A stretch of DNA of 64,000 nucleotides, from contig JAZURI010000003.1 of the NCBI GenBank assembly GCA_045606105.1, positions 1 to 64,000 on the forward strand, written 5' to 3'. The notes beneath the pieces were generated by a model. The model saw only the letters and a list, made by a program, of their open reading frames with translations, made no database searches and was not told where the DNA came from. This document shows, one piece after another, positions 1,369 to 64,000 of this stretch. This DNA comes from Spirochaetia bacterium (GTDB lineage: Bacteria; Spirochaetota; Spirochaetia; CADAEX01). Each line of letters begins with the position of its first letter. Position 1 is the first letter of the stretch. The translations under genes were made by a program, and so were the position numbers.

Positions 1369-1416
1369 TACTAACTAATAAAGAAATAAAAAAATATTCT
1401 TAGAGGAGATGAACTA

Positions 1417-7730: not shown

Positions 7731-7799
7731 CTGATAAAAGATTATCAGAATATTCTTTGCGGTGCAATATTTATGTAAGATTAAAAAATGAAAAGGATA

Positions 7800-7872
7800 T
7801 GGAGCTGATCAGACTCGAACTGACTACCTTTTGAATGCCATTCAAACGCTCTACCTGGTGAGCTACAGCCCC
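7800..7872 (-). tRNA. tRNA-Ala(GGC)
   Basis: Reverse complement GGGGCTGTAGCTCACCAGGTAGAGCGTTTGAATGGCATTCAAAAGGTAGTCAGTTCGAGTCTGATCAGCTCCA: acceptor stem with G3:U70, anticodon loop ATGGCAT, TTCGA T-loop; CCA not encoded. Confidence 0.97.
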
Positions 7873-7880
7873 ATAATTTC

Positions 7881-7909
7881 ATTCTATCACAAAAAGAGTT
7901 TTTTGTCAA
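7881..7909 (-). promoter_or_regulatory. sigma70-type promoter of tRNA-Ala
   Basis: TTGACA-N17-TAGAAT on the minus strand, 8 nt before the tRNA 5' end. Confidence 0.85.
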
Positions 7910-7917
7910 AACCTGTT

Positions 7918-8655
7918 TCAGTCCTGAATCGGTCTGAAATAGGCAGGCATCTGTCTCTTGTGACGGCTTCCGTTGTGGTATCTTTCCAGGATTTTCAGAT
8001 CCTCAGGAGAAGCAACTCCGTTCAGCAGGTAATTGTCGATATTGGCATAGGTTATTCCCATGTCCTTTTCATCGGTCTGTCCCTCGTAGAGACCTGCGGA
8101 AGGGGCTTTCTTTATGATGTTTTCCGGTGCTCCCAGATATTCAAGAAATTCGTAAACCTCCTTTACGGTAAGGTCCACGATAGGGTTGAAGTCACAGCCT
8201 CCGTCACCCCATTTTGTAAAATATCCCATATAGGTTTCGCTTCTGTTGCCGGTTCCTGCCACCAGCTTTCCCTCCGATGCCCCGATGGCATACAGGGTGG
8301 TCATCCTGATTCTCGGCGCCATGTTGGTAAGGGCGGTCCGGTTAAGCTCTGTCTTGCCCTCCAGTGCCTTGAGAAGCTCCTGCTTTATAGGAGTTATATC
8401 CACGACTCTGGTTTCGATACCGAATTTTTCGGCTACCTCCAGACCGTCCTTCATGTCTTCCTCGAAATTTCTCTTGGATTCGCAGGGCATGATGACTCCG
8501 GTAGTATTTTCACAGGCCATCTTGCTGAGGATACCTACCAGCGCACAGTCCTTTCCGCCGCTGTTCCCGTATACTATTCCCTTGGCTCCGCTCTTTGCCA
8601 GGAGCTCTTTAATGAATGCTACTCTGTTTTCCAGCTCTTCCTTGTAATTTCTCAT
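7918..8655 (-). CDS. nadE: NAD(+) synthase, NH3-dependent
   Basis: SGGKDC, NMAPRIRM, GTGNRSE, GYFTKWGDG, KAPSAGL motifs. Confidence 0.95.
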   Translation of the reverse strand: MRNYKEELENRVAFIKELLAKSGAKGIVYGNSGGKDCALVGILSKMACENTTGVIMPCESKRNFEEDMKDGLEVAEKFGIETRVVDITPIKQELLKALEGKTELNRTALTNMAPRIRMTTLYAIGASEGKLVAGTGNRSETYMGYFTKWGDGGCDFNPIVDLTVKEVYEFLEYLGAPENIIKKAPSAGLYEGQTDEKDMGITYANIDNYLLNGVASPEDLKILERYHNGSRHKRQMPAYFRPIQD

Positions 8656-8758
8656 GGTTTTATTCTATCATTTGCCCCTCTCCGTAACAAGTGTAAATTG
8701 ACAAAATCACTATAAAGGGATAGAAATTTAATTAGTATATTTTTATTTAGGAAAACAG

Positions 8759-9976
8759 ATGAAACAGGTCAGACAGGCATTAAGATTAAGTAATGTGGAA
8801 TATGCAATCAGGGGACCGGTTCTGGATGCAGCCCAGAAGCTTGAAAAAGAGGGAAGAAAGATATTCAAGCTGAATATCGGAAATACGGGAGCCTTTCAGT
8901 TCGATATAGATCCCAGAATCAGGGATTATGTCATGGAAAATCTCGGCAGGGCCGGCGGTTACTGTGATTCCAACGGACTTCTTGAAGCCAGGGAAGCAAT
9001 CAGGGACTACTATGAAAGCAAGAATTTCCCGAAAGTAGACCTGGACAACATATTTATCGGAAACGGTGTAAGTGAGCTTATTACCCTTACTACACAGGCG
9101 CTCATCAATCCCGGGGATGAACTTCTGGTTCCTTCCCCTGACTATCCGCTGTGGACTGCGGCGGTCAATCTTTCCGAGGGGCGTGCCGTTCACTATATCT
9201 GTGACGAGGAATCCAACTGGAATCCGGATCTCAAGGATATAGAAAGCAAGATTACATACAGGACAAAGGGTATTGTTCTCATTAACCCAAACAACCCAAC
9301 AGGAAGCATTTATCCCAGAGAAATAATCGAAGGTATCGTGGATATAGCCAGAAGATACGGTCTGGTTATCTTCTCCGATGAAATCTATGACAGGATCATC
9401 TACGACGGCGATACCCATTATTCACCGGCCTGTTTTTCACAGGATATCCTGACCATTACCTTCAACGGTCTTTCCAAGGCACACCGTTCCTGCGGACTCA
9501 GGGCCGGATGGATGGTTCTTACCGGAAACAACAGGGTGGCAGAGGATTACAAGATCGGTCTCAAGACCCTTACCAGCATGAGACTCTGCAGCAATGTACC
9601 TGCTCAGCTGGCCATCAAGCCTGCACTGGAGCTGGATGATTCGATTTTTGCCCTTACTGCGGAAAACGGAAGACTCAGAAAACAGAGAGACCTGTGTCAT
9701 GAAATGCTCAATGCCATTCCGGGGGTAAGCTGCAGGAAGGCGGCTGCTTCGCTCTATGTTTTCCCTAAGTTTGATACAGTGAAGTTCAACATAAAGAATG
9801 ACGAAAAGTTTGTTCTCGATTTCCTTGAAAGCAAGAATGTACTTCTTGTACCAGGATCGGGATTCAACTGGAAATATCCGGATCACTGCAGAATAGTATT
9901 CCTTCCTTCAGAAGAAGATCTCAGGGAATCCCTGACCCGTCTGGGCGAGTTCCTCGGAACCTACAGACAGGAATAG
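8759..9976 (+). CDS. alaA: PLP-dependent class I/II aminotransferase, AlaA-like
   Basis: YAIRGPV, KLNIGN, GNGVSELI, INPNNPTG, DEIYD, NGLSKAHR..G.RAGW. Confidence 0.85.
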   Translation: MKQVRQALRLSNVEYAIRGPVLDAAQKLEKEGRKIFKLNIGNTGAFQFDIDPRIRDYVMENLGRAGGYCDSNGLLEAREAIRDYYESKNFPKVDLDNIFIGNGVSELITLTTQALINPGDELLVPSPDYPLWTAAVNLSEGRAVHYICDEESNWNPDLKDIESKITYRTKGIVLINPNNPTGSIYPREIIEGIVDIARRYGLVIFSDEIYDRIIYDGDTHYSPACFSQDILTITFNGLSKAHRSCGLRAGWMVLTGNNRVAEDYKIGLKTLTSMRLCSNVPAQLAIKPALELDDSIFALTAENGRLRKQRDLCHEMLNAIPGVSCRKAAASLYVFPKFDTVKFNIKNDEKFVLDFLESKNVLLVPGSGFNWKYPDHCRIVFLPSEEDLRESLTRLGEFLGTYRQE

Positions 9977-9987
9977 AGGAGCCTTCA

Positions 9988-11178
9988 GTGGAAATTATCG
10001 AGAGAACCGACACAGTTACCAGAGTCAGATGCGGAGACCGGGAGATTACTCTTCTGGGAACAGCCCATGTATCCCGTGAAAGCGTGGAGGAGGTCAGAAG
10101 CTTTATCGAAAACGAGAAGCCGGACCGGGTCTGCGTAGAACTTGACGAAAGACGTCTCAAGTCCATGAGCGAGGGAAGCAACTGGGAAAATCTCGATATA
10201 TACAAAATCATAAAGACAGGACAGACCTTTTTCTTTCTGGCCAATCTGGCAATGTCTGCCTTCCAGAAGAAAATAGGGGCCAACCTTGACATAAAGCCCG
10301 GCGAGGATATGAGACAGGCGGTGGAGATTTCCAAGGCCAACAACATTCCGTTTACACTGGCAGACCGTGATATTCAGACCACTCTCAAGAGGGCCTGGAA
10401 GCTTTCCAGCATTTCAGAGAAAAGCAGGATGATCAATTCCCTTGCCGGTTCCGTTTTTTCCAAGGAGGAGGTATCCGAGGAGGAGATCGAGCAGCTGAAG
10501 AAGAGAAGCGCCCTGGAGGACATGATGCAGGAGATGGCAGAATACCTGCCGTCGGCAAAGACAGCCATCATAGATGAAAGGGATCTTTTCCTGGCTTCCA
10601 GGATTTATGCATGTACCGAAAGCAGGATAGTGGCAGTTCTGGGTGCGGGACATATTCCCGGCATTCTCAGGCATTTCGAGAAGTTCGAGGCTGAGGGAAA
10701 GATTGCCGATGTGGCAGCCATAGATTCCGTTCCGGCCAAAAGCAAGGCGGCAAAGGTTCTTCCGTGGCTTATTCCGGTCATGTTTGCAGCTATCATCATT
10801 ACAGGTTTCTTCAATGCAGGAACGGAAAAAAGCACCGACCTGCTTATTCACTGGTTTGTGGTAAAGGGGGCTCTGGCAGCTCTCGGTGCTCTTGCCGCAC
10901 TGGCACATCCTCTGACAATAATAGCGGCATTCTTTGCGGCACCCCTTACATCCCTGAATCCGACCATCGGTGTGGGAATGGTTTCCGGTATCCTGGAGGC
11001 AGTTCTCCGCAAGCCTAAGGTAAAGGATTTTCAGGCTCTGGCCGACGACATAATGACGGTAAAGGGCTTTTTCCGCAACGGAATAACCCATATCCTTATT
11101 GTTTGTCTCATGACAAGCATCGGTGGCGTGGTGGGTACTGTTATTGTTTTTCCTTGGCTGCTGGCTCTGCTGCAGTAG
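9988..11178 (+). CDS. TraB/PrgY (pheromone shutdown) family protein
   Basis: LLGTAHVS, VCVELD..R, DRDI..TL.R, IIDERD, AVLGAGH and C-terminal TM segments. Confidence 0.9.
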   Translation: MEIIERTDTVTRVRCGDREITLLGTAHVSRESVEEVRSFIENEKPDRVCVELDERRLKSMSEGSNWENLDIYKIIKTGQTFFFLANLAMSAFQKKIGANLDIKPGEDMRQAVEISKANNIPFTLADRDIQTTLKRAWKLSSISEKSRMINSLAGSVFSKEEVSEEEIEQLKKRSALEDMMQEMAEYLPSAKTAIIDERDLFLASRIYACTESRIVAVLGAGHIPGILRHFEKFEAEGKIADVAAIDSVPAKSKAAKVLPWLIPVMFAAIIITGFFNAGTEKSTDLLIHWFVVKGALAALGALAALAHPLTIIAAFFAAPLTSLNPTIGVGMVSGILEAVLRKPKVKDFQALADDIMTVKGFFRNGITHILIVCLMTSIGGVVGTVIVFPWLLALLQ

Positions 11179-52439: not shown

Positions 52440-52962
52440 AGGAACTACCATCCTTGCCGTAAGAAAGGGGGGAAAAACAGCCATGGCCGGAGACGGACAG
52501 GTAACCCTTGACAAGACTGTAATGAAAGGACATGCGCGTAAGGTCCGCAAGATATATGACGGAAAGATTCTGGTGGGATTTGCCGGTGCTACGGCAGATG
52601 CCTTCACCCTTTTCGAGAAATTTGAAGGAAAGCTCAAGGAATTCAACGGGGACATGACCCGCAGTGCCGTAGAGCTGGCCAAGGAATGGAGAACAGACCG
52701 TGCTCTCCGTCGTCTGGAGGCAATGCTTCTGGCTGCCGATGCCGGCAAGATACTCCTTATTTCAGGTACCGGCGACGTGGTGGAGCCGGACGAGGATACC
52801 CTGGCCATCGGCTCCGGCGGAAACTATGCCTATGCTGCAGCCCTTGCCCTTCTCCGGGCCGATGTTGCAATGGAGGCATCCGAGGTGGCCAGGAAATCCC
52901 TGGAAATAGCATCTCAGATCTGTATCTATACTAACGACAATATTATCGTGGAGGAGCTCTGA
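52429..52962 (+). CDS. hslV: ATP-dependent protease subunit HslV
   Basis: TTILAV, GDGQVT, GFAG.TADA, AIGSGG.YA, CIYTN; SD aggag. Confidence 0.97.
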
Positions 52963-54320
52963 TGTTGGATTTTGATCAGCTTACACCGAAACAGATAGTT
53001 GAAGAACTTGATAAATATATCATCGGCCAGAACAATGCAAAGAAGGTCGTGGCCATGGCACTCAGGAACAGAGTCAGGAGAAAACAGCTCCCGGAGGCAC
53101 TCAGGGAAGAGGTTATTCCAAAGAACATCATCATGATCGGTTCCACAGGTGTAGGAAAGACAGAAATAGCCAGAAGACTTTCAAAGCTTTCAGGAGCCCC
53201 ATTTGTAAAGGTGGAGGCTACTAAATATACCGAGGTAGGCTATGTGGGCCGCGATGTGGAGTCCATAATCAGGGACCTTATGTCAGTGGCTGTAAACATG
53301 GTCAAGTCAGAAATGAGAAATGGTGTGGAGGCCGATGCAAAGGCCCGTGTCGAGGAACTTATCCTTGATGCCCTTCTTCCCGGAACCGGAAACAAGCCGC
53401 TTGCCGAGGGCGAAAACCAGGTTCCTCAGATTCCTGCCGGAGATTCCTCTCTCAGGGAAAAGTTCAGGAACAAGCTCCGGAACAACGAACTTGAGGAGAA
53501 GCAGATAGAGATAGATGTGAATCAGGGCGGATTCCAGCCGATGGAGATTTTTGCAGGAACCGGAATGGATGACATGGGTCTCAATTTCGGAAGCATTACC
53601 GGCATGCTGGGCAATAAGAAAAAGAAACGGAGAACCAGTGTAAAGAATGCCAGGGAGCTTCTTCTCGAAGAGGAAATTGACAAGCTTATCGATACAGACA
53701 AGGTTTCCGAAATTGCAAGAAAGCGTACCCAGGAGATGGGTATCGTGTTTATCGATGAAATTGACAAGGTGGCCGGCAGACAGAGTACCGGCGGTGCCGA
53801 TGTATCCAGGGAAGGGGTCCAGAGAGACATTCTTCCTATCGTGGAGGGCTGCAAGGTCAATACAAAATATGGAATGGTGGATACCACCCATATCCTTTTC
53901 ATTGCAGCAGGTGCTTTCCACATGAGCAAGCCGTCGGACCTTATTCCTGAGCTTCAGGGACGTTTTCCTCTCAGGGTTGAGCTGGGAAGCCTCAAGGCCG
54001 ATGAATTTGAGAAAATACTTACAGTACCGAAAAATGCACTTATCAAGCAGTATGAGGCCCTTATGGATACGGAAGGGGTAAAGCTTGAGTTCACACCGGA
54101 AGCCGTAAGAAGAATTGCGGTTATCTCGGAGGAACTGAATTCCGGTACGGAAAATATCGGGGCAAGAAGACTTCATACCATTATGGAGCTTCTTCTGGAA
54201 GAGGTCTCTTTCTCGGCTCCTGAGCTGAAGGGACAGACCATAACCATAACTCCGCAGTATGTGGACGAAAGACTTCACGGAGTATTGGGAGACCAGGATC
54301 TGGCAAAATATATCCTTTAG
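52962..54320 (+). CDS. hslU: ATP-dependent protease ATPase subunit HslU
   Basis: PKNI.MIG.TGVGKTEIARR, GYVGRDVES, DEIDK, PELQGRFP, NIGARRL. Confidence 0.98.
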   Translation: MLDFDQLTPKQIVEELDKYIIGQNNAKKVVAMALRNRVRRKQLPEALREEVIPKNIIMIGSTGVGKTEIARRLSKLSGAPFVKVEATKYTEVGYVGRDVESIIRDLMSVAVNMVKSEMRNGVEADAKARVEELILDALLPGTGNKPLAEGENQVPQIPAGDSSLREKFRNKLRNNELEEKQIEIDVNQGGFQPMEIFAGTGMDDMGLNFGSITGMLGNKKKKRRTSVKNARELLLEEEIDKLIDTDKVSEIARKRTQEMGIVFIDEIDKVAGRQSTGGADVSREGVQRDILPIVEGCKVNTKYGMVDTTHILFIAAGAFHMSKPSDLIPELQGRFPLRVELGSLKADEFEKILTVPKNALIKQYEALMDTEGVKLEFTPEAVRRIAVISEELNSGTENIGARRLHTIMELLLEEVSFSAPELKGQTITITPQYVDERLHGVLGDQDLAKYIL

Positions 54321-54331
54321 GGAGGGGAGAT

Positions 54332-55270
54332 ATGAGAGAGCAGATTTCAAACTTATGGAAAAATCTTAAAAACGGACAGAAAGTTACACTGATAATGATT
54401 TTTGTTGCTGCTTTTGCCGGAATTCTGTTTCTGTGCTCGGCAGGAACCACATCCTTCAAGACACCGCTCTTTACCGCACCTATCGGGGATAAGGATGTTA
54501 TCAGCCGTATTTCAATCCGTCTTGACCGGGCCGGTGTGGAGCATTCCCTCAGGGACGGGATGATTTTTGTAAATGACAAGGAATCTGCCGGAAAGATGGT
54601 AGCTCTTCTGGTAAGGGAAGATCTGGTGCCTAAGGAAGCTTCTCCATGGGATGTTTTCAGGATGGACAGATGGACCACCACCGATTTCGAGCGCAATGTC
54701 AATCTCCGCCGTGCCATTACAGAAGGGCTTGAAAACCATATCGAGTCCCTGGATGACATAGATAAGGCCGGAATTACCCTGGTAATGCCTGAAAAGGAGC
54801 TTTTCTCCGAGGATCAGAAAGAGGTTACCGCCTCCATTATCCTTACAGTCAGACCCGGCTCCGACTTCATCTACAACAGAAAGAAGATCGAAGGAATCAT
54901 AAAGCTGGTAAAGTTTGCGGTGGAAGGGCTTGAAACAGAAAATATCACTATCTGCGATACTGCAGGAAATGTCCTCAGCGACCTGTCGGCACTTCCTGTA
55001 CCGCCTCAGGGTATGCAGATAACCGAACCTGAACAGACCGGGATTATAAAGGAAAGCAATACTCTTTTCTTTATCGGTGAGTTCGGAGTAGGATACAATC
55101 ACATATACATGGCTCTTGGTGCTGCTGCCGTAATTGTCATTGCCGTGTTTGCAGTCAGGGGTATCAGAAAGAAAAAGGATGAAGCTCTTCTTTCAGATGC
55201 AAGGAAAATTGCTTCCGAAAATCCGGAAGAAGTTGCCAGACTTATCAAGATGTGGCTTTCGGAGGGGTAG
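54332..55270 (+). CDS. fliF: Flagellar MS-ring protein FliF, internally shortened (312 aa)
   Basis: Spirochete FliF motifs DPW-like SPWDVF..DRWT.TDFER.VNLRRAI, LVMPE..LF..DQ..VTASI, AVEGL..ENI.I.D; C-terminal NPEEVARLIKMWLSE. Confidence 0.88.
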   Translation: MREQISNLWKNLKNGQKVTLIMIFVAAFAGILFLCSAGTTSFKTPLFTAPIGDKDVISRISIRLDRAGVEHSLRDGMIFVNDKESAGKMVALLVREDLVPKEASPWDVFRMDRWTTTDFERNVNLRRAITEGLENHIESLDDIDKAGITLVMPEKELFSEDQKEVTASIILTVRPGSDFIYNRKKIEGIIKLVKFAVEGLETENITICDTAGNVLSDLSALPVPPQGMQITEPEQTGIIKESNTLFFIGEFGVGYNHIYMALGAAAVIVIAVFAVRGIRKKKDEALLSDARKIASENPEEVARLIKMWLSEG

Positions 55271-55273
55271 AAT

Positions 55274-56242
55274 ATGAAGAAAAAACTTTCCGGAAAAGAG
55301 AAAGCTGCCGTATTCATCATGGCTCTGGGATCTGAGATCTCCTCTTCCGTATGCAGTCATCTCTGCAGTGAAGACCAGGAAATCCTCTCCTATGAAATAG
55401 CAGCCAGAAGAATAACCGGTGCCTGCAGCGTAAAGTCTGTTCTGTCTGAATTCAGGAATCTCATGAAGGCAGGTAACCTTACCGTTATCGGAGGAATCGA
55501 CTATGCCGGTTCAGTTCTTAAAAGGACAATGGGACTTGAAAAAGCAGAAGAAATCATCAGCCGTATTTCCCTGTTCATGCACAGGAAGCCCTTTGATTCC
55601 ATAAGAAAGGTTGCGCCGGATTCGCTTCTTGCCCTTCTGAAAGGGGAACATCCCCAGACCATAGCCGTGGTTCTTGCCAATGTGGAGCCGGAAAAGGCCT
55701 CTTCAATCCTTGCCAGACTGCCTCGTGAAATCCAGTCGGATGTGGCAAAGCGTATTGCCGTATTGGACAGAACCGAACCTGAAACTCTTCTCAGAATTGA
55801 GAAAATCATCGAAAGAAAGCATGCTATGGCTTCTGCTGCCGGAGAATACAGGGGCGGAATAGAAAGCATCATCGAAATACTGAACCATATGGACCGCAGC
55901 TCCGGGGACAATATTATAAGTACCATTCTCAGGGAGGATTCTCTCCTGTCAGCCAGACTCAGGGAAAAGAATCTCAGCTTCGACGATATTGCATTGCTGG
56001 ACAATCCTTCTGTTATCCGGATAATCAGGGAAACCGATCCGGTTGAAATCGAGAAGGCACTCCGTACAGCCGATTACAGGGTACGGGAAAAAATCATGAA
56101 CAATCTCTCCTCCGAGGTTTCCGAAAAGGTAAGAAACAACGAGGGTCGTCCTATTCTGATTGCCGATATCGAGGCTGCACAGAACAGGATAACAGGGCTT
56201 TTGAAAAAGCTTATGGAACAGGGCGAAATTGCTTTTGCATGA
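55274..56242 (+). CDS. fliG: Flagellar motor switch protein FliG, divergent
   Basis: LSGKEKAA, GGIDYA, EHPQTIA, GG linker, DIE.AQ.RI...GEI. Confidence 0.92.
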   Translation: MKKKLSGKEKAAVFIMALGSEISSSVCSHLCSEDQEILSYEIAARRITGACSVKSVLSEFRNLMKAGNLTVIGGIDYAGSVLKRTMGLEKAEEIISRISLFMHRKPFDSIRKVAPDSLLALLKGEHPQTIAVVLANVEPEKASSILARLPREIQSDVAKRIAVLDRTEPETLLRIEKIIERKHAMASAAGEYRGGIESIIEILNHMDRSSGDNIISTILREDSLLSARLREKNLSFDDIALLDNPSVIRIIRETDPVEIEKALRTADYRVREKIMNNLSSEVSEKVRNNEGRPILIADIEAAQNRITGLLKKLMEQGEIAFA

Positions 56243-56253
56243 AGAGGTAACTG

Positions 56254-56904
56254 ATGTCAGATATACTTTTTAAAGCCGTAGATATAGCAGAACTGGAAAA
56301 TGCCAAGGCGCTGGAGAACCGGGAAAATGCCTGTGCCGAGGCAGAAAGCATAAGGGCTCAGGCCCGTGCCGAAGCGGAGCGTATACTGGCCGAGGCTGAA
56401 AAGAATGCCCGTCTTGCCGAAAGGAAAGGGGAACAGAAGGGGCGTGATGCAGGCTTCCGGGAGGGACTTGCAGAGGTTTCCATGGTTGCGGAAAGAATCC
56501 GTTCCGTTCTTGTGAGGCTTACGGAGGAAAAGGACAGGATGCTGGCTTCTGCAGAGGATGAACTTGCCTCCCTGGCTCTTGAAATTGCAGAAAAGATAGT
56601 TAAAAGAAGCTGTGAGGAATACCGGGAAACAGCTGTTGAGAACATAAGGCATGCACTGACAGGCATCGGTGAAAGCTCAGAGGTGACAATCAGGGTCAAT
56701 CTGGAGGATATCGATATATCCCAGACCCATCTCAGGGATTTTCAGTCTGCATGTTCTGATGGCGGAAAAATCAAAATAGTACCGGAGCCGTCGGTGGAAA
56801 GGGGCGGCTGCATAGTCGAGACCGGATCATGCCGTATCGATGCCACAGTCTCATCCCAGCTCAGGGCTGTGGAAAGGATATGGAAAGATGTTCGGGAAGT
56901 ATAG
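56254..56904 (+). CDS. fliH: FliH/SctL-family protein, short
   Basis: AxxxA/GxxxG repeats (GEQKGRDAGFREG), IRVN..D, GGCIVET..IDA.V.SQL. Confidence 0.88.
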   Translation: MSDILFKAVDIAELENAKALENRENACAEAESIRAQARAEAERILAEAEKNARLAERKGEQKGRDAGFREGLAEVSMVAERIRSVLVRLTEEKDRMLASAEDELASLALEIAEKIVKRSCEEYRETAVENIRHALTGIGESSEVTIRVNLEDIDISQTHLRDFQSACSDGGKIKIVPEPSVERGGCIVETGSCRIDATVSSQLRAVERIWKDVREV

Positions 56905-57154
56905 GGAAGCCCTTCGGAAAAGGGATACGCTGACCTTTACCGGCAGGATAGTCAAGGTTTCGGAAAACCTGGCCGAAAGCATAGGGCCGGCAGTGGCACT
57001 GGGCGATATCTGCCGCATAATTATTCCATCCACAGGCGAAGGTATCAGGGCCGAGGTAATCGGTCTGGACCGGGAAACAGTCTGCCTCAGGGCAGCCGGC
57101 TCTCTCAAGGGGGTCAGGATCGGCTCTGTAGTGGAAGCGGAAAACAGCTTGTAA
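56888..57154 (+). CDS. fliI: FliI N-terminal domain only (88 aa, no ATPase domain)
   Basis: MFGKY..., TGRIVKV...AESIGP...GDICRI...AEVIGL...GVRIGSVV matches the FliI N-terminal beta-barrel; TAA TAA stop; no Walker motifs seen downstream. Confidence 0.8.
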   Translation: MFGKYREALRKRDTLTFTGRIVKVSENLAESIGPAVALGDICRIIIPSTGEGIRAEVIGLDRETVCLRAAGSLKGVRIGSVVEAENSL

Positions 57155-57199
57155 TAAAATTTCACTTATATATCAGACCGAAAAGTTCGACAATTAAGT

Positions 57200-57604
57200 A
57201 TGGTGCAGTTTTTATATCCCGTACTAAGAGAGCCGGACATTCTCAGGAAATATCCCACAGAAATCGTTGATATGACAAAAATCGGCAATTCAGTGAAGAG
57301 AATCACTGCCGAGGTTATAATCCCTGGAGTAGGCTTTGCCTCCGTATCCCTGAAATTCAACGGTAACAGGTTCACCATGGATATTGCTGTAAACCGCAGC
57401 GGGGTAAAGAAGCTGGTGGAGGAGAGAATCCATGAGCTTGTAAGCAGGTATAAATCCCCCGATTATATCCTTACAGAGCTTTCCGTAAGGCTGGATGAGG
57501 AAAGGCTGTGCACATCCGGTTCCTGTCTCGATATCATGTCTGACAGGTGGCTCAATATCGTTTATCCCGACTCATCATCATGTCATCTGGAAACCTTTGC
57601 CTAA
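57200..57604 (+). CDS. FliK C-terminal (T3S4)-like domain protein
   Basis: IPGVGFASVSLKFNGNRFTMDIAV....VKKLVEERIHEL resembles the L.P..LG.v.v.l FliK-C pattern; located at the fliK position. Confidence 0.5.
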   Translation: MVQFLYPVLREPDILRKYPTEIVDMTKIGNSVKRITAEVIIPGVGFASVSLKFNGNRFTMDIAVNRSGVKKLVEERIHELVSRYKSPDYILTELSVRLDEERLCTSGSCLDIMSDRWLNIVYPDSSSCHLETFA

Positions 57605-57637
57605 TAATATATTTATATTAAATAATAAAGAAACAGT

Positions 57638-57666
57638 TTGCAAAATTACGGTATGTTTGCTAAAAT
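57638..57666 (+). promoter_or_regulatory. Internal sigma70-type promoter for fliM(N)-fliOPQR-flhBA-flhF
   Basis: TTGCAA-N17-TAAAAT preceded by an AT-rich UP-like tract at 57603-57630. Confidence 0.7.
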
Positions 57667-57675
57667 ATATGCAGT

Positions 57676-58647
57676 ATGCAGGATGGGGCATGGGATTACA
57701 GTTCTTATAAATCTCTGTTGACAGCTTTTTCGGAAGCTTTTGCTCTCCTTGCATCCGTAAAAAACGGTATTTCCATTGAATTTTCAGAACTGAAGCAGAC
57801 AGTTTACAGCCGATATGTAAGGTCTCAGCCAAGCTATACCGCATCACTTCTTCTTGACTGGAACGGAATCGGGATTACGGCAGATGCAGATCCCGGTCTT
57901 TCATTTTACGTGCTGGAGAGACTTCTCGGAGGAAACGGCAGTCCGGGTATAGTGAACAGGCCTCTTTCGGTAATAGAGCAGGCTGTGGTTTCAGATTTTT
58001 TTTCAAGGCTTGCGGAGGGGCTGGGTACTGTTGCCGGCTGGTGCGGTTCAGAAGCTCCGGAATGGAAAAAGCTTTATCCTTCGGTATCGGAGACAGGGCT
58101 TACAGAGGAGGAATCCCCGGTTGTCATCCTGTCTTTCAATGCAGACGGAAAAAAGGATAACCTTAGAATTGTTTTCCCTGCAGCTGCAGGCAGTGCATTA
58201 TGTGCCCTGTTGTCAGAGGCTTTTGCCGAAGATGGCAGTGTAAGGTTTTCTGCAGAGACGGAGGGAGTGGTTCTTTCTGAAACGGAAAGGGCAGATCTGG
58301 GAATCGGCGATGTTATTGCATTGGGTAAACCGGGAAACCTGCTGCAGTTCAGGATCGGAAAGAAGTTATGCTGCAGATGTGAAACCGGTCTGTCAGGGGA
58401 TAAACCTGCGGTACGGACCGTGGATGTCATGCCGGAGCCTGAAAGGGATGGGACTGTAACCGTTCTTTTCGGCCGGGGAAGGATCGGAGTGGCTCAGGCG
58501 GCGGCTCCGGAAAAGGGAATAACAGCCCTGGTGGACAGAAAAAAGGGAGAGCCGGCCGGGCTTCTTGTCTCAGGAAAGGCTGTTGCTCTGTGTGAATTTG
58601 TAATGCTTGAGGATAAGCTGGGAGTGCGTATCATAAAGTTGATTTGA
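57676..58647 (+). CDS. fliM: FliM-FliN fusion-like C-ring protein
   Basis: FliM middle-domain motifs ERLLGG.G and RPLS.IE; SpoA-like LGIGDVI.L...CETG....AVR; second FliN-like SpoA VTV.FGR...DRKKGEP..LLV.GK.VA.CE.V.LEDKLGVRII. Confidence 0.75.
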   Translation: MQDGAWDYSSYKSLLTAFSEAFALLASVKNGISIEFSELKQTVYSRYVRSQPSYTASLLLDWNGIGITADADPGLSFYVLERLLGGNGSPGIVNRPLSVIEQAVVSDFFSRLAEGLGTVAGWCGSEAPEWKKLYPSVSETGLTEEESPVVILSFNADGKKDNLRIVFPAAAGSALCALLSEAFAEDGSVRFSAETEGVVLSETERADLGIGDVIALGKPGNLLQFRIGKKLCCRCETGLSGDKPAVRTVDVMPEPERDGTVTVLFGRGRIGVAQAAAPEKGITALVDRKKGEPAGLLVSGKAVALCEFVMLEDKLGVRIIKLI

Positions 58648-58678
58648 ATATGATGTTTTAAAATCTCTGGGAGGGGAC

Positions 58679-59173
58679 GTGAAAAACATTCTTTTAACAA
58701 TAATTTTGTCTCTTAATATATTTTCTGCACAGCATGTGTTCTGTGATACATTTTCTGCTGCGGATGAAAGTTCATTATCCATAGGGGGCGGCAGCAGTGC
58801 CGGTGTCCGGGCTGCTTCTCCGGTATTTTCCTCAGGGGACCTTTTCAGGATGATACTGGTTCTGGTGCTGGTTACCGCACTGATCTATGCAGTTTTCCAT
58901 CTCCTCAGGAAATTCCGTTTTTCAGAGAACGGGGGAGACAAGGGGGATATCCGCATTCTTTCCAGCAAGGGACTGGGACCTGGAAAGGCACTCCATGTGG
59001 TTGAGATTGCCGGCCGGTATTTTGTTATCGGTGCTTCCGACAACTCTGTTTCATGTATTACCGAGCTTACGGAGGAAGAGGGAAGGAAAATCGGTACCGG
59101 ACAATCCGTATCAGGCTTCTCCCTTGCGGAAAATCTCCGTAAAATCAAGGCCTGCAGGGAGAGACTGAAATGA
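58679..59173 (+). CDS. fliO: Flagellar biosynthesis protein FliO/FliZ
   Basis: TM FRMILVLVLV.ALIY, then LGPGK.LHVVEI.GR.FVIG.SD.SV..I. Confidence 0.88.
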   Translation: MKNILLTIILSLNIFSAQHVFCDTFSAADESSLSIGGGSSAGVRAASPVFSSGDLFRMILVLVLVTALIYAVFHLLRKFRFSENGGDKGDIRILSSKGLGPGKALHVVEIAGRYFVIGASDNSVSCITELTEEEGRKIGTGQSVSGFSLAENLRKIKACRERLK

Positions 59174-59952
59174 AAAAAGTACTTCTTCTGGTTTTACTTA
59201 TGGGATTATTCCTTTCTGCAGAGCTCTTTGCTTCCGAAAGCAATGCTTCAGGCGGTTTTGCCCTCCCTTCCGTAGAAATAAACATGGGAGAAGGGGCTGT
59301 AAACACCGGTGACAATGAAAAGACTGCCTCCTCCATAAAGCTGCTGCTGCTCCTTTCAGTAATTGCCATAGCCCCTTCGGTGCTGCTTCTCTGCACCTCC
59401 TTCATAAGGATAGCCGTGGTTCTGGATTTCATAAAGCGTTCCCTGTCGCTGCAGCAGACTCCACCCAATCAGATAATCATGGGACTGGCCCTTTTCCTTA
59501 CGGTCTTCATCATGTGGCCTGTCTTTGACGATATTTATCAGAATTCCTTCAAGCCTTTTTCCCAGGGGGAGATAGAGGCTTCCGAAATGTATGGCAGGGC
59601 TGAAAAGCCTCTCAGGATATTCATGTACAACCAGCTCAGGGATAACCCGGAAAACATCAGGCTTTTCATGAATCTCAGCGGTCTTCCGAAGCCGGCAAAC
59701 CTTTCCGAGGTTCCGACCTATGTCCTGGTTCCTGCCTTTGCACTCAACGAACTTACGGTGGCGTTCAGGATCGGTGTCCTTATTTTCATACCGTTCCTGG
59801 TTATAGATATGATAGTGGCATCCATTCTCATGTCCATGGGGATGGTCATGGTACCACCTGTAATGGTGTCTCTTCCGTTCAAGCTGATGGTATTTGTCCT
59901 TGCTGACGGATGGAACCTTATAATTGGCCGGTTGCTCAGCAGCTTTGTCTAG
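59170..59952 (+). CDS. fliP: Export gate protein FliP
   Basis: TSFIRI.VVL, QQTPPNQ, PAF.L.EL..AF.IG, MSMGM.MVPP..VSLPFKL..F.L.DGW. Confidence 0.97.
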   Translation: MKKVLLLVLLMGLFLSAELFASESNASGGFALPSVEINMGEGAVNTGDNEKTASSIKLLLLLSVIAIAPSVLLLCTSFIRIAVVLDFIKRSLSLQQTPPNQIIMGLALFLTVFIMWPVFDDIYQNSFKPFSQGEIEASEMYGRAEKPLRIFMYNQLRDNPENIRLFMNLSGLPKPANLSEVPTYVLVPAFALNELTVAFRIGVLIFIPFLVIDMIVASILMSMGMVMVPPVMVSLPFKLMVFVLADGWNLIIGRLLSSFV

Positions 59953-59960
59953 GAGATAAA

Positions 59961-60230
59961 ATGGAACTCGGTGATGCTGTATACATTTTCAAGACATCCC
60001 TGATTCAGGTACTGCTTGTTGCCTCTCCGGTGCTTCTGGTCAGTCTTCTTGTGGGGCTGATAGTGTCGTTTTTCCAGTCGGCAACCTCAATCCACGAGCA
60101 GACTCTGGTATTTATTCCTAAAATTCTGGCAGTTCTCCTGGTCCTGATACTTCTGGGGGGCTGGATGATTTCTGCCATAGAGCAGTATACGCTGCATATA
60201 TTTGACATGATTCCGGGGATGACTGAATGA
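59961..60230 (+). CDS. fliQ: Export gate protein FliQ
   Basis: P.L...LVGLIVS.FQ.ATSI.EQTL.FIPKI; SD aggag. Confidence 0.96.
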   Translation: MELGDAVYIFKTSLIQVLLVASPVLLVSLLVGLIVSFFQSATSIHEQTLVFIPKILAVLLVLILLGGWMISAIEQYTLHIFDMIPGMTE

Positions 60231-60943
60231 ACTGGTGGCTTTTTTTCCTGGCCTTTGCCAGAATATTTGCCTTGATGCAGACTGCACCTCTTCTCTCATC
60301 AAGAAGCGTTCCGCTCCTGGTCCGCATCGCCATGTCCCTTTTTACAGCCTACGGAGTCACACCGGCCCTTACCGGAATTGTCATACCACAGGATCCGGTT
60401 TCATATTATCTCCTGCTGGCAGGAGAGGCCATGCTGGGAGCGGCAATGGGACTCTTCATGCAGATGGCTTATATGGTATTCCTTTCTGCCGGCCGGTTCA
60501 TGGGACTCTGTTTCGGAAATTTTTCGGGGGATGCCGATTCTCCGGTTGCCGGTCTCATGAATTATGCCGCAGTTTTCGTATTTCTGGCCGCATCGGGGCT
60601 CTACAGCCTTTTCTTTATAGGGGTTACCTCCTCCTTCAAGGCTCTTTCGGCCTACGACATTGCAGCCTGCAGGGAGGGAATGGCATTGCTCCTGACAAGG
60701 GGTTTTTCTGCAATGTTTGCCAAGGCACTACTGACAGCACTGCCCGTGATTGCCGTTCCTCTTCTTGTTACATTGATTACCGGGATTCTGAGACACATGG
60801 ATTTCGGCTGGAGTGCGGCCATGGTTACCGGAATCATAATGCTGGCCTTTGTCCTTCCGTTCCTTATGGATAGCTTCGGAAGCTTCATCGACAGCAGCTT
60901 TGACATAGTTTCGGGATGGATTTCATCGGGAGGAAGCCTATGA
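60227..60943 (+). CDS. fliR: Export gate protein FliR, divergent
   Basis: FFL.FARI.A....APLLSS..VP...R, GEA.LG, SF, ALP; position between fliQ and flhB. Confidence 0.85.
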   Translation: MNWWLFFLAFARIFALMQTAPLLSSRSVPLLVRIAMSLFTAYGVTPALTGIVIPQDPVSYYLLLAGEAMLGAAMGLFMQMAYMVFLSAGRFMGLCFGNFSGDADSPVAGLMNYAAVFVFLAASGLYSLFFIGVTSSFKALSAYDIAACREGMALLLTRGFSAMFAKALLTALPVIAVPLLVTLITGILRHMDFGWSAAMVTGIIMLAFVLPFLMDSFGSFIDSSFDIVSGWISSGGSL

Positions 60944-61632
60944 TTGATGAAATCCGTGAGGTAAAGGCCACTGCCCGAAGGGTGAAAAAGGCTTCTGAAA
61001 GGGGAGATTCACCGAGAAGCAGGGAATTTGCAATGGCTTTTTCACTTCTGGCCGTACTGCTTGTCACCTTGGTTTTCGGAAAATATTTTCTCGGATGCAT
61101 CAGGGAAACCGTTGCTTCCTTTATCGGTTATGCAGTGGAGGGTGAGCTTGACGGAAAGGCTGCAGCCATGGCCTTCGGATGCTTTGTCCGGGTATGTGTT
61201 CCCTATTTTGCGGTGCTGGCTGCCGTGACCTGGATGACAGAGGTCAGTCAGGTGGGCTTTGTATTCGTTACCGGGGAAAAAAGAAAAATGGGAAAAAAGA
61301 CCCCATCCTCCGGATGGATCGGTGGAATTCTTTCCCTGCTCAGGACTGCTGCGGTGACAGCGGTGGTTTTCCTGGCTGTAAAAAGCGATTTCAACCGGCT
61401 TGCCGGTATGACAGATATGATGTTTACCTTTGTATTTGTTTTCAGGGTTCTTCTTTATGTGGGAATCCTTCTGGTGATTTCTGCATCTGCAGATTACTTG
61501 ATTGCCAGGTTCCTTCACAGGGAATCTCTCCGTATGACCAGAAGGGAGCTTTCGGAAGAACAGAGGGATGAAATGGGAGATCCGGCTGTAAAGGCCAGAC
61601 TTGACGAGAGAATGAAACAGCTTCTGAGCTGA
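60940..61632 (+). CDS. flhB: FlhB transmembrane part only, lacking NPTH and the cytoplasmic domain (230 aa)
   Basis: AT.RR..KA.E.G..PRS.E, Q.GF.F, DY......SLRMT..E..EE.....GDP.VK.R; stop before NPTH. Confidence 0.88.
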   Translation: MIDEIREVKATARRVKKASERGDSPRSREFAMAFSLLAVLLVTLVFGKYFLGCIRETVASFIGYAVEGELDGKAAAMAFGCFVRVCVPYFAVLAAVTWMTEVSQVGFVFVTGEKRKMGKKTPSSGWIGGILSLLRTAAVTAVVFLAVKSDFNRLAGMTDMMFTFVFVFRVLLYVGILLVISASADYLIARFLHRESLRMTRRELSEEQRDEMGDPAVKARLDERMKQLLS

Positions 61633-61646
61633 AAGGGCTTTGATAT

Positions 61647-63668
61647 ATGATGAAAGAGAGAAAAAACAGCAATATTCTGGTGCCGCTGATAGTGCTTGTG
61701 GTGGTAGCGATGATAATAATACCAATGCCGGTACCGCTGCTTGATATCTTTATGGCAGCCAACCTGCTTTTCAGCCTTGCGGTACTGCTGATGGTCATCT
61801 ACACCGGAAAGCCTTCCGATTTTTCGGTTTTCCCGACCATGCTTCTTGTCTCCACCGTATTCGGACTGGGGCTGAATGTATCCTCCACCAGGCTTATCCT
61901 TTCCAAAGGGGCCGAATTTGACGGCAAGCTTATCAGGGCCTTCGGAAACTTTGTCGTAGGTTCATCGGGAAATGAGGGTCTTGTAATCGGTCTGATCATC
62001 TTTGTCATCTTTATCCTTGTCCAGCTGATCGTAATAACCAAGGGTGCCGGAAGAGCTGCCGAGGTTGCTGCCAGGTTCAATCTGGATGCCATGAACCAGC
62101 GGAATCTCTCCATCGATGCCGATGTGGCAGGGGGCCATATTACAGCAGCTGAAGGGGAAATACGGAAAAAGGAGTATCAGCAGGAAACTGATTTCTACAA
62201 GAGCATGGACGGTGCCTCCAAGTTTGTTTCCGGAAATGTAAAGGTGGGAATCGTCATCACATTGGTCAATATCATCGGCGGTATAATCATCGGAATGCTG
62301 CTCAGGAAGGAAAGCTTCGGTCTGGCTGTGGCAAACTATACAGCCCTTACCATCGGAGACGGTCTTGTAACCCAGTTCCCTTCCATTATGATTTCGGTAG
62401 CCACTGCCATCATAGTCACCAGCTCCACCGGTTCCGGCTCGCTGGCAGCCGACTTTGCCGGACAGTTTTCCAAAAGGCCGGAAATATACCGTATCCTTGC
62501 AGTTTTTTCAGTAATAATGGCCCTTCTTCCGGGCTTCAGAAGAGCATGGTACATTTTCATTCCTCTGGGAATCTTTCTTTTCTATCTGGGACACAAACTG
62601 GGACAGTCAGGTTCCGTTCCTGAAAAAGAGGAGAAACCCGAAACAAAGCCGGAAAGTGCCGCCCCTGCCGCAGACATAAGCATTTCCCCAGTGTCAGAGG
62701 TTCATCCTCTCTATCTGGGACTGGGATACGGTCTTTACAGATTTGCATCTGACAGCACCATGTTCGGAAACCGTATAACGGAACTCCGGAAAAAAATAGC
62801 ATCTGAACTGGGATTTGCCATTCCTCCGGTCAGGATAACAGATAACCTTAATCTTAAGCCGGCGGAATACAGTATCAGGATCAGGGATGTGGAGGCAGCC
62901 AGGGCTTCTGTCCGTGCAGACAAGCTTGTGGCCATAGCCGACGGTCCGGTATCGGACAAGGTGCTCCGAAATCTGGGTGAGGAATTCAATGAACCGGTCT
63001 ACGGAAAAAAAGCCTGCTGGATTTCGGCAGAAGAGAGGGAAAATGCCCGGGACAAAGGGTGTATAGTTACAGATATACCGTCTCTCATTATTGTCCATAT
63101 GGAGGAGATAATCAGGAGAAATGCCGCTGACCTCCTTGACCGTCAGACTGTGCAGTCCATGCTGGATGAGCTTTCAAAAAGACATCCTGCCGCAGTAAAG
63201 GAGACCATGAAGCTTCTTACTCTGATAGATATACACAAGGTGCTCAGGAATCTGCTCAAGGAACAGGTTTCCATCCGGGATCTGGGACTGATTCTTGAAA
63301 CTCTCGGCGACAGCGTTTCTGTCTCCGGGGATATCGGATATCTTACGGAAGAGACACGCCGGGGACTCAGACGGCAGATTTCACACAGCTATGCAGATGA
63401 AGGAATGCATCTCCATGTCATTACACTCAGCAGCGAAACAGAGAAAAAGCTTCTGGAAAATCCTTATGATATCAGATTCAACGAAAAGCTTGCAGGAAGG
63501 GTAATGGAGCTGGCAGAGGGAAGAAACGTGGTTCTTATGTGCAGAAAGGAGCTCAGGGCCGGTCTGGGAGCCCTTCTTGCCGGAAAAAAGAGCTTTGTTC
63601 CGGTATTATCGGCAGATGAGAAGGCAGATGACATAATTATTGAATTCCACGGAAAGGTTGATGTATGA
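61647..63668 (+). CDS. flhA: Export apparatus protein FlhA
   Basis: FS.FPT.LL..T.F.L.LNVSSTRLIL, ITKG..R.AEV.ARF.LD, MDGASKFVSG, TIGDGLV.Q.P, LL.EQVSIRDL..ILE. Confidence 0.97.
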   Translation: MMKERKNSNILVPLIVLVVVAMIIIPMPVPLLDIFMAANLLFSLAVLLMVIYTGKPSDFSVFPTMLLVSTVFGLGLNVSSTRLILSKGAEFDGKLIRAFGNFVVGSSGNEGLVIGLIIFVIFILVQLIVITKGAGRAAEVAARFNLDAMNQRNLSIDADVAGGHITAAEGEIRKKEYQQETDFYKSMDGASKFVSGNVKVGIVITLVNIIGGIIIGMLLRKESFGLAVANYTALTIGDGLVTQFPSIMISVATAIIVTSSTGSGSLAADFAGQFSKRPEIYRILAVFSVIMALLPGFRRAWYIFIPLGIFLFYLGHKLGQSGSVPEKEEKPETKPESAAPAADISISPVSEVHPLYLGLGYGLYRFASDSTMFGNRITELRKKIASELGFAIPPVRITDNLNLKPAEYSIRIRDVEAARASVRADKLVAIADGPVSDKVLRNLGEEFNEPVYGKKACWISAEERENARDKGCIVTDIPSLIIVHMEEIIRRNAADLLDRQTVQSMLDELSKRHPAAVKETMKLLTLIDIHKVLRNLLKEQVSIRDLGLILETLGDSVSVSGDIGYLTEETRRGLRRQISHSYADEGMHLHVITLSSETEKKLLENPYDIRFNEKLAGRVMELAEGRNVVLMCRKELRAGLGALLAGKKSFVPVLSADEKADDIIIEFHGKVDV

Positions 63669-64000
63669 TCGGTGATTATTCCTTAGTTGTCAGAGCCCTT
63701 GAAAGGATAGAAAAAAAACTGGATTCCGGTATCGGTACAACAGCTGTGCCCGATAATATTCTCTATACCGAGGAGCTTCTCCGTTCAAACGATTTTTCCC
63801 ATTCCTTTATCAGGAAAATATCGGAGACCCTGATGAGGGAGGTTTCCTACGAGAATCTTCTGAGCAGAGGCTATGTGCTGAAGAGAATCAGGGATCTTAT
63901 TCTTGATAATATAAATATTTATGATATTACAGAGCCTTATGTTCCGGAAATTACGGTGTTGCTGGGCCCAACCGGAGTCGGAAAGACCACCACGGTAGCC
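63665..64000 (+). CDS. flhF: FlhF SRP-family GTPase, 3'-truncated by window edge (not in the ORF track)
   Basis: ATGA overlap with flhA; translates MIGDYSLVVRALERIEKKL...EELLRSNDFS..FI...VLLGPTGVGKTTTVA. Confidence 0.88.
   Translation, partial: MIGDYSLVVRALERIEKKLDSGIGTTAVPDNILYTEELLRSNDFSHSFIRKISETLMREVSYENLLSRGYVLKRIRDLILDNINIYDITEPYVPEITVLLGPTGVGKTTTVA

Follow-up and report, generated by a model that had tools for sequence, protein, structure and literature searches.

Immediately behind hslU, in a 64-kb window that forms the first 64 kb of contig 3 of a small spirochaete genome (G000), lies a string of thirteen flagellar-type genes running from fliF to flhF; by the window we mean this whole stretch of DNA. 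The export gate set (FliP, FliQ, FliR and FlhA) and the assembly factor FliO are all present in the string, and the axial, stator and chemotaxis parts of a flagellum were not found in a genome that is 99% complete. We regard the locus as very probably a non-motile remnant that is maintained by selection. Random decay is excluded, because the ratios of nonsynonymous to synonymous divergence (dN/dS) are low and the differences among strains are mostly synonymous.

The genome measures 1.465 Mb in 11 contigs (completeness 99.0%, contamination 0.04%). It was compared with eight other species of its genus (G001-G008, at 1.2-1.8 Mb; n = 9 species with G000) and with a flagellated relative from the same family, G011 (3.8 Mb, one contig), which served as the reference. 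Because the contig of G005, assembled independently, carries the same gene layout as the window, and because contigs nearly identical to it have been recovered from animal gut, faeces and sheep metagenomes in 8 studies, it is unlikely that the layout is an assembly artefact. In two libraries filed as metatranscriptomic, contigs span all 30 bins of the stretch (X9) or 22 of the 30 (X20); such libraries can hold DNA. A full-text search of the literature, supplements excluded, returned no description of this genus or of a rod-less form of the flagellum's type III secretion system (fT3SS) in spirochaetes.

Gene order, missing parts and reduced proteins

An earlier note on this DNA had described the order of genes after hslU, and both the open reading frames (ORFs) and Pfam agree with it from fliF through flhF. 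Its statement that the frames are open and tightly packed is likewise borne out: the first gene begins 11 nt past the hslU stop, intergenic gaps measure 3-71 nt or are replaced by overlaps of 4-65 nt, and every frame is open. Upstream, topA, xerC, hslV and hslU lie on one strand from 49.4 kb. The features are as follows (C3, contig 3).

52387-52962, plus strand: hslV (Pfam Proteasome; 74% identity to G011 HslV)
52962-54320, plus strand: hslU (Pfam AAA_2; 67% identity to G011 HslU)
54332-55270, plus strand: fliF, short form, 312 aa (Pfam YscJ_FliF only, 6e-37)
55274-56242, plus strand: fliG, 322 aa (Pfam N, M and C domains)
56254-56904, plus strand: fliH, 216 aa (Pfam FliH, 1e-23)
56840-57154, plus strand: fliI N-terminal fragment, 104 aa ORF (Pfam ATP-synt_ab_N only, 3e-4)
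57200-57604, plus strand: stand-alone FliK-C (T3S4) domain protein, 134 aa (Pfam Flg_hook, 4e-4, under the Pfam cut-off)
57676-58647, plus strand: fliM-fliN fusion, 323 aa (partial FliM and two FliMN_C (SpoA) stretches)
58679-59173, plus strand: fliO (Pfam FliO, 1.6e-10)
59170-59952, plus strand: fliP (Pfam FliP, 1e-74; 64% identity to G011)
59910-60230, plus strand: fliQ (Pfam Bac_export_3; likely start near 59961, where the tblastn match starts)
60227-60943, plus strand: fliR (Pfam Bac_export_1)
60916-61632, plus strand: flhB, 238 aa, transmembrane part and linker (profile positions 4-240 of 335)
61647-63668, plus strand: flhA, full length, 673 aa (Pfam FHIPEP, 2e-198)
63665-64000, running on to about C3:64510, plus strand: flhF, 5' part (tblastn; Pfam SRP54)
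About C3:64576-65337, beyond the window and after flhF: fliA (tblastn; sigma-70 regions r2, r3 and r4)

The fliI fragment probably starts at 56888, which would give 88 aa, since this is where its tblastn match to residues 4-86 of G011 FliI begins. The fliA product is 53% identical to G011 FliA. An apparent in-frame TGA in the FliG of G000 and G005 was set aside: the alignment had overrun the end of the ORF by a few codons, and the ORF at 55274-56242 is open.

The reference genome shows what a complete version of this gene string looks like. By Pfam, the G011 operon reads hslV, hslU, flgB, flgC, fliE, fliF, fliG, fliH, fliI, fliJ, a 211 aa gene (presumably FlbB), fliK, flgD, flgE, flbD, motA, motB, fliL, fliM, fliN (CheX-like plus SpoA), fliO, fliP, fliQ, fliR, flhB, flhA, flhF, a ParA-type gene and fliA. 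The G000 locus shares with it the gene order and the flanks (topA-xerC-hslVU upstream, fliA downstream), and for each gene retained the closest homologue, at 27-64% identity, is found in that operon. Against this operon, G000 is without flgB, flgC, fliE, fliJ, the 211 aa gene, flgD, flgE, flbD, motA, motB, fliL and flhG; also gone are residues ~230-490 of FliF, the ATPase domain of FliI, the N-part of FliK, the N-terminus of FliM, the C-domain of FlhB (FlhB-C), the CheX-like N-terminal part of FliN and the N-part of FlhF. We considered whether the locus might instead be an injectisome, an identity opposed by the synteny and by the greatest similarity being to the flagellar operon of the family; the secretin, needle and SctD families were not searched.

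The missing parts were not found elsewhere in the genome. When the proteins of the G011 operon were used as tblastn queries on G000, nothing matched beyond the genes of the locus (fliA included), and profile searches of the whole genome at E<=1 gave no match to the rod N- and C-terminal domains, FliE or flagellin (PF00460, PF06429, PF02049, PF00669), nor to the FliS chaperone. CheW likewise had no match in G000 at E<=1; CheA, CheY and methyl-accepting chemotaxis proteins were not searched separately. For the stator, the G011 MotA query gave nothing convincing in any of the nine genomes of the genus (only 17 bits in G001), the sole MotA_ExbB match in G000 being a 205 aa frame that this query does not recognise; tblastn with G011 MotB, the only MotB search made, gave no match in G000. 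Queries with FliJ from G011 and G006 found none in G000, and there is no second Bac_export_2 match there, i.e., no other FlhB. Neither a separately encoded FlhB-C nor a further FliN, both of which we considered, turned up in G000. The ATP-synt_ab matches in G000 comprise only two adjacent frames on C8 (602 and 436 aa; ~7541-10651) and a 497 aa frame on C9; from the frame sizes, the pair looks like V-type ATPase A/B and the third like Rho, and the FliI ATPase domain is not among them. An F-type ATPase pair was also not among these matches. As the earlier note had supposed, then, the axial, stator and chemotaxis parts are missing, and neither profile nor tblastn searches detected a second flagellar gene set in G000.

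That note had further proposed that the retained proteins lost the domains contacting rod, stator, CheY and substrate switch. This holds for the RBM3/collar of FliF, the CheY-binding N-terminus of FliM and the C-domain of FlhB; it does not hold for FliG, whose C domain is kept and in which only the charges of the torque helix are replaced.

FliF keeps its two transmembrane segments (TM1 and TM2), RBM1, RBM2 and the C-terminal FliG-binding tail (NPEEVARLIK.WLSE), with RBM1 and RBM2 near-invariant across the genus and G011; the deleted stretch corresponds in the alignment to roughly residues 230-490 of the 569 aa G011 protein, which is the RBM3/collar region. An AlphaFold2 model (mean pLDDT 66; 70-83 in the two RBM domains) matches RBM1-2 chains of FliF (8wkq_UI, TM-score 0.75 on the target) and also the injectisome chains EscJ, PrgK and MxiJ at probability 1.00, so that the periplasmic part of the short FliF is predicted to have the SctJ domain plan, i.e., RBM1 and RBM2 followed by a membrane helix. 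By sequence and synteny it is a FliF, and unlike SctJ it keeps the N-terminal membrane helix and the FliG-binding tail.

FliG has diverged well beyond the range of motile relatives: its identity to G011 is 69-100% in 26 of these and 40-45% in the genus. Of the 219 columns near-invariant in the 26, the share retained by the genus is 59% for the N domain and 62% for the M domain, against 37-42% for the C-terminal parts. The EHPQ motif is kept. In the helix that reads SKRAANTLKEDME in G011, the residues K295, R296 and E303 (G011 numbering), near-invariant in the motile relatives, are replaced in all six genus sequences compared, R296 by E or D; from work on E. coli, we take these to be the charges that contact the stator.

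The fliI fragment encodes the FliH-binding N-terminus and the beta-barrel without the ATPase domain. FliH and FliI are a textbook pair with a solved complex, and when two FliH chains were modelled together with the 88 aa stub, the score was 0.65 against 0.00 for the best control, passing a mark that is reached by 58 of 80 solved complexes and by 2 of 110 mismatched pairs; at least 92% of contacts agree between runs, and the partner pLDDT is at least 81. Such a pass may reflect likeness to the solved complex and not binding.

For the stand-alone FliK-C protein, a profile built from the nine genus proteins matches the C-terminal part of proteins of 390-520 aa, and the nearest structures to its model (core pLDDT ~80) are the PscP switch domain 5cuk (E 2.5e-3, probability 1.00) and FliK-C 2rrl (probability 0.99). 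The FliM/N fusion consists of the FliM middle domain with LGGxG, the FliM SpoA and then a FliN-type SpoA, and its tblastn matches cover residues 55-319 of G011 FliM and 321-383 of G011 FliN; about the first 46 residues of G011 FliM, including LSQNEIDQLL, have no counterpart. The FlhB alignment stops after the linker (GDPAVK...LLS), just before the NPTH region of G011, and the autocleaving C-domain is absent. FlhA is the least altered in its membrane part, where, of the columns near-invariant among 25 motile relatives (216 columns in all), the genus keeps 77-99%, with 99% at residues 201-250.

Selection and stepwise loss within the genus

We estimated dN/dS by the Nei-Gojobori method for G000 against G005 and for three pairs within a sister clade of six species (G002, G003, G004, G006, G007 and G008). 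Between G000 and G005 the ratio runs from 0.09 (fliP) to 0.33 (fliM/N), with hslU at 0.045; dS for this pair is 0.7-2.6, i.e., near saturation, so these ratios are rough, and the sister-clade pairs (dS 0.5-1.4), with ratios of 0.03-0.22 and hslU at ~0.035, are more reliable. In the G000-G005 comparison the fliI stub stands at 0.26 (bootstrap 0.12-0.49) and fliH at 0.12. Bootstrap upper bounds are 0.49 for the FliI stub, 0.49 for FliK-C, 0.46 for FliM/N and 0.26 for FliH, and they do not exceed 0.49 for any of seven genes (fliI-N, fliKc, fliM/N, fliH, fliO, flhB and fliF).

The variation among strains has the same character. Among the 40 listed of 125 strain differences, 35 fall in fliF-fliR, 24 of them synonymous and 11 not. 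The only frame-breaking variant among those listed is a 1-base deletion at 58647 that hits the fliM/N stop codon; it comes from a single minor contig in one RNA-library run (depth 4.5 of 21.7) and reflects either minor strain variation or an error of assembly. Across the nine species, with up to 13-17 copies per species, every gene copy examined is open, except fliI of G008, which is cut by contig ends.

The reduction is a property of the genus. Rod and flagellin were found in 0 of 9 species, and both are present in 11 of 12 other relatives searched. FlhA, FliF and FliG each occur in all nine species, FliH and FliMN_C each in eight, and the core common to all comprises FliF, FliG, FliOPQR, the FlhB membrane part, FlhA, FlhF and FliA. 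A protein search with FliF recovered ~47 clusters (at 90% identity) of homologues of 311-315 aa, all of them proteins from Spirochaetia or Spirochaetales metagenome-assembled genomes; lower in the list stand Treponema sp. and Gracilinema caldarium, which backs the spirochaete label.

Within the genus the parts retained differ from lineage to lineage. The layout of G005 is identical to that of the window, and the end of its FliI stub lies no more than a few residues from that in G000. The six-species clade shares the short FliF and the FlhB without C-domain but has a full FliI (~61% identical to G011 FliI) and FliJ, and thus a complete FliH-FliI-FliJ complex where G000 has only FliH and the FliI stub. 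Its genes occupy two loci: hslVU-fliF-fliG-fliH-fliI-fliJ, and a second that runs ftsK, a 103 aa FliG-M-like gene, a 295 aa sigma-like gene, fliK-C, fliM/N, fliOPQR, flhB, flhA, flhF and fliA. In G001, FliF is longer (470 aa), FliG is shortened (221 aa) and FlhB is of full length (L021:6940-7986), and the genome yielded no FliH, FliI or FliM/N. Since its FlhB carries GKDG at the place of the NPTH of G011, the autocleavage site seems, from this sequence, to have been lost before the C-domain itself.

Counterparts of two genes of the second six-species locus were noted at other places in G000. One is a small second FliG-like protein of 155 aa with part of FliG_N and FliG_M (contig 11:112882-113349, minus strand; L051:8882-9349), homologous to the 103 aa FliG-M-like gene that lies between ftsK and the export operon in the six congeners; Borrelia has the paralogues FliG1 and FliG2, and the protein may be a remnant of the second spirochaetal FliG paralogue. 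The other is a protein of 278-295 aa with a weak match to sigma-70 region 4 (in G000, contig 7:43243-44079, L052:5243-6079; also L015:12169-13056), whose gene stands between FliG-M-like and fliK-C in the six congeners and elsewhere in G000; its dN/dS is 0.16.

In a tree of concatenated HslU, FliP, FlhA and FliR, G001 lies nearest to the outgroup (support 0.97) and G000 with G005 is sister to the six-species clade; HslU by itself, which weakly (0.66) puts G000/G005 nearest to the outgroup, does not confirm this root. A provisional order of losses is drawn by parsimony from shared truncations. The truncation points of FliF, FlhB and FliI-N are shared across relatives in the genus, by descent and not at random. 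The coordinated pruning proposed earlier therefore needs to be recast: the shared truncations and the purifying selection stand, but the pruning was stepwise and differed between lineages, and it was not one event, because six congeners keep full FliI and FliJ and G001 keeps a full-length FlhB and a longer FliF but is without FliH, FliI and FliM/N.

Because the genus sits in a family whose other genera are flagellated, its loss of motility looks like an event separate from that of other spirochaete families, with a different outcome. The accessible part of PMC12236494 treats the non-spiral spirochaetes as one monophyletic clade. Like the Sphaerochaeta-type spirochaetes, the genus described here gave up motility; unlike them, it kept the export core, and the other genera of its family are fully flagellated. 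In four genomes from four other families of the class we found no match to FlhA or FliG, and in G025, the only one of the four searched for rod and flagellin, neither was found, so the loss of motility genes in those families looks complete.

FliA, FlgM and other genes outside the string

The earlier note overlooked a retained pair of regulators: fliA, encoded at the end of the gene string, and flgM, encoded on contig 1 of G000 (94 aa, 43 bits against a cut-off of 25) and found in 8 of the 9 members of the genus. Upstream of flgM, at 22-30 nt before the start codon, stands the -10 element GCCGATA[AT] (GTCGATAT in G001) in all 7 loci with upstream sequence, preceded by an AT-rich, TAAT/TAAA-like -35 region. 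By its sequence, and against the sigma-28 consensus, this is a putative promoter of the sigma-28 type.

The same arrangement, TAA[AT]-N15-GCCGATAT, lies upstream of the gene for a SPOR-domain membrane protein in 8 of 8 species (in G000, contig 5:77174-77830; L064:3174-3830), which makes that gene a candidate sigma-28 target; if it is one, it would tie the circuit to the cell wall or to division. There are 33 GCCGATA[AT] sites upstream of ORFs in G000, and conservation across species is seen only at flgM and the SPOR gene; other candidates are a DUF4015 protein (C1) and a possible TrkA-like gene (C2).

At the far end of the window, positions 1-4530 are low in GC (0.30-0.38 against ~0.47 elsewhere) and hold genes for a DUF4209 protein (73-1368) and for the R subunit of a type I restriction system (1417-4530; HSDR_N, SWI2_SNF2, T1RH-like_C); this is probably an acquired defence island at the contig end. 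The sole Rfam match in the window at the gathering threshold is a tRNA gene at 7800-7872 on the minus strand.

What the remnant may do

The reading we favour, which we hold at even odds, is that the remnant would use the proton gradient to export proteins from cytoplasm to periplasm and, by exporting FlgM, would set the activity of sigma-28. FliP, FliQ and FliR, with the help of FliO, would form the export gate together with the FlhB membrane part and FlhA; a FliF ring of RBM1 and RBM2 only, the architecture of injectisome SctJ, would enclose this gate; the C-tail of FliF would bind FliG, and FliG would in turn bind the FliM-FliN fusion, onto which FliH and the N-terminal stub of FliI would dock. 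With no ATPase in G000 and no rod to cap the gate, the proton gradient, acting through FlhA, would drive unfolded proteins into the periplasm, which is where spirochaete flagella are built. The recognisable clients left are only the anti-sigma-28 factor FlgM and the stand-alone FliK-C domain. The main job of the machine would be to export FlgM and thereby to gate sigma-28 (FliA), encoded at the end of the same gene string, and the sigma-28 regulon would now be non-flagellar, consisting of flgM itself and perhaps of the SPOR-domain membrane protein.

Several observations point this way. We infer that the gate still works because the ion-coupling part of FlhA is its best conserved part (the membrane part is, we presume, the one that conducts ions) and because two clients of known systems, FlgM and FliK-C, are kept; FlgM and FliK are secreted proteins in those systems. 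Cargo leaving an uncapped gate would be delivered to the periplasm because spirochaete flagella are periplasmic. In Salmonella, proton-driven export is reportedly possible without FliH and FliI. The kept FliA-FlgM pair suggests a regulatory use of the locus. Extended to the whole genus, this becomes a free-standing rod-less exporter, serving secretion or signalling, with an SctJ-like ring, an FlhB without its switch and, here, no ATPase, in which FlgM export would control a non-flagellar sigma-28 regulon; that broader version we advance tentatively, as falling somewhat short of an even chance.

A number of points weigh against an exporter of this kind, the main objection being that without FlhB-C export may fail altogether or may have to follow a route other than the known one: in Salmonella, FlhB-C is needed for the export of both substrate classes, and FlgM leaves after the FlhB/FliK switch. 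The parts of FlhA that dock substrates and FliJ, namely its C-domain and linker, are its least conserved ones, the cytoplasmic domain keeping 52-80% of near-invariant columns and the linker at 351-400 being lowest, with 35% in G000. These genes are 2-3 times less constrained in the G000-G005 pair than in the sister clade, as would fit a fading function, and in G001 the cytoplasmic platform is missing entirely, so that at least one lineage can dispense with the accessory parts. On the regulatory side, G003 has no FlgM match; the element before the SPOR gene sits within the 3' end of the upstream ORF, where coding constraint may explain its conservation; and a genome-wide scan of G000 for sigma-28 promoters hardly exceeded chance (7 strict matches where shuffles predict 2.8, and for a looser pattern 15 where they predict 11), such that no sigma-28 regulon as a whole can be claimed. 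FliA and FlgM could also be retained for reasons unrelated to the apparatus. Finally, no non-flagellar substrate was identified and the exporter role is read from sequence, for which reason the flagellum-to-secretion exaptation proposed in the earlier note was overstated.

Classical export is disfavoured in an apparatus that has lost FlhB-C, all known axial substrates and, in G000 and G005, the ATPase. These losses would suit an alternative under which the genes build a structural or organising platform and not an exporter: a hat-shaped, fT3SS-like scaffold, a nanotube base such as the Bacillus CORE, or a polar or division-site landmark with FlhF. The accessible text of PMC6456723 gives FliO, FliP, FliQ, FliR, FlhA and FlhB as the CORE, a gene set present in all nine species (with FlhB truncated in G000, and known here from genes alone), and that of PMC9380563 describes an fT3SS-dependent hat-like structure at the inner membrane whose function is unknown. 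FlhF is kept, the export operon of the sister clade follows ftsK, and the candidate sigma-28 target has a SPOR domain. However, the best-kept portion of the whole apparatus is the membrane part of FlhA, which conducts ions and which a passive scaffold would not need; FlgM and FliK-C, secreted in known systems, are retained; and there is no evidence of nanotubes in spirochaetes. We consider a platform unlikely.

A second alternative keeps the exporter and changes its cargo: signal-peptide-less enzymes or envelope proteins would be sent to the periplasm or beyond, and FliA and FlgM would be a mere left-over regulator. All of the evidence from selection and conservation applies equally to this possibility, and a small genome and a gut habitat would favour the re-use of an existing machine. 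A precedent exists in Lysobacter enzymogenes OH11, which has no flagella and in which, according to the accessible text of PMC7688988, residual fT3SS genes are expressed and fliI and flhB mutants lose the secretion of three toxic proteins; a comparable proposal has been made for Buchnera. Yet no candidate cargo was found, no FliS chaperone gene was found in G000, and without a rod or an outer-membrane channel the cargo would stop in the periplasm. The loss of FlhB-C, moreover, removes the known docking site of early substrates. This version, too, strikes us as improbable.

That the genes are non-functional relics on the way to being lost, open only because deletion is slow, is very improbable: different parts are lost in different lineages, constraint is relaxed in G000/G005 relative to the sister clade, and FliG and the C-domain of FlhA have diverged far past the range among motile relatives, but the copies remain open at dS of ~1 or more with dN/dS of 0.03-0.33, FliF lengths are uniform at 311-315 aa in ~47 clusters, and a 1.46 Mb genome that cleanly shed ~20 neighbouring flagellar genes would not retain 9 kb of junk.

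The retention of fT3SS genes in non-motile bacteria is already known, and chlamydial flagellar orphans exist; what is different here is the extent of the reduction, the graded series within one genus and the keeping of sigma-28 with FlgM. Buchnera aphidicola is likewise a host-associated bacterium with a reduced genome that has export and basal-body genes without flagellin, and its basal-body proteins include rod and hook. In G000 no rod or hook gene was found, FliF is without RBM3, FlhB is without its C-domain and there is no ATPase. For Buchnera, the accessible part of PMC8109811 reports that basal-body structural proteins are kept and proposes a role in transport. Lysobacter OH11, a free-living gammaproteobacterium with a large genome, has retained FliI, FlhB in full and FlgD, the hook cap; a functional flagellin is all that it is reported to be missing. 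The Bacillus CORE and the hat-shaped structure are second uses beside flagella, whereas here such a use would be the only one.

The locus would amount to a natural experiment on what a flagellar type III exporter minimally consists of. Selection kept FliOPQR, FlhA, FliG, the membrane part of FlhB and a FliF reduced to RBM1 and RBM2, and it tolerated the loss of the rod, of RBM3 and of FlhB-C and, in some lineages, of the ATPase or of the whole C-ring platform. It bears on three questions: whether a gate can work in nature without FlhB-C and the ATPase, what purpose the inner RBM2 ring of FliF serves, and how an injectisome-like system could have started from a flagellum. Material for comparison is at hand in a single genus, graded from G001 through the six-species clade to G000/G005. 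For the spirochaetes, it represents what looks like a second, independent loss of motility, with an outcome unlike the complete loss in other families of the class. If the broader, genus-wide version of the exporter reading is true, nature would have produced in this remnant a minimal type III exporter, and the step proposed as the first towards injectisomes would have a living analogue.

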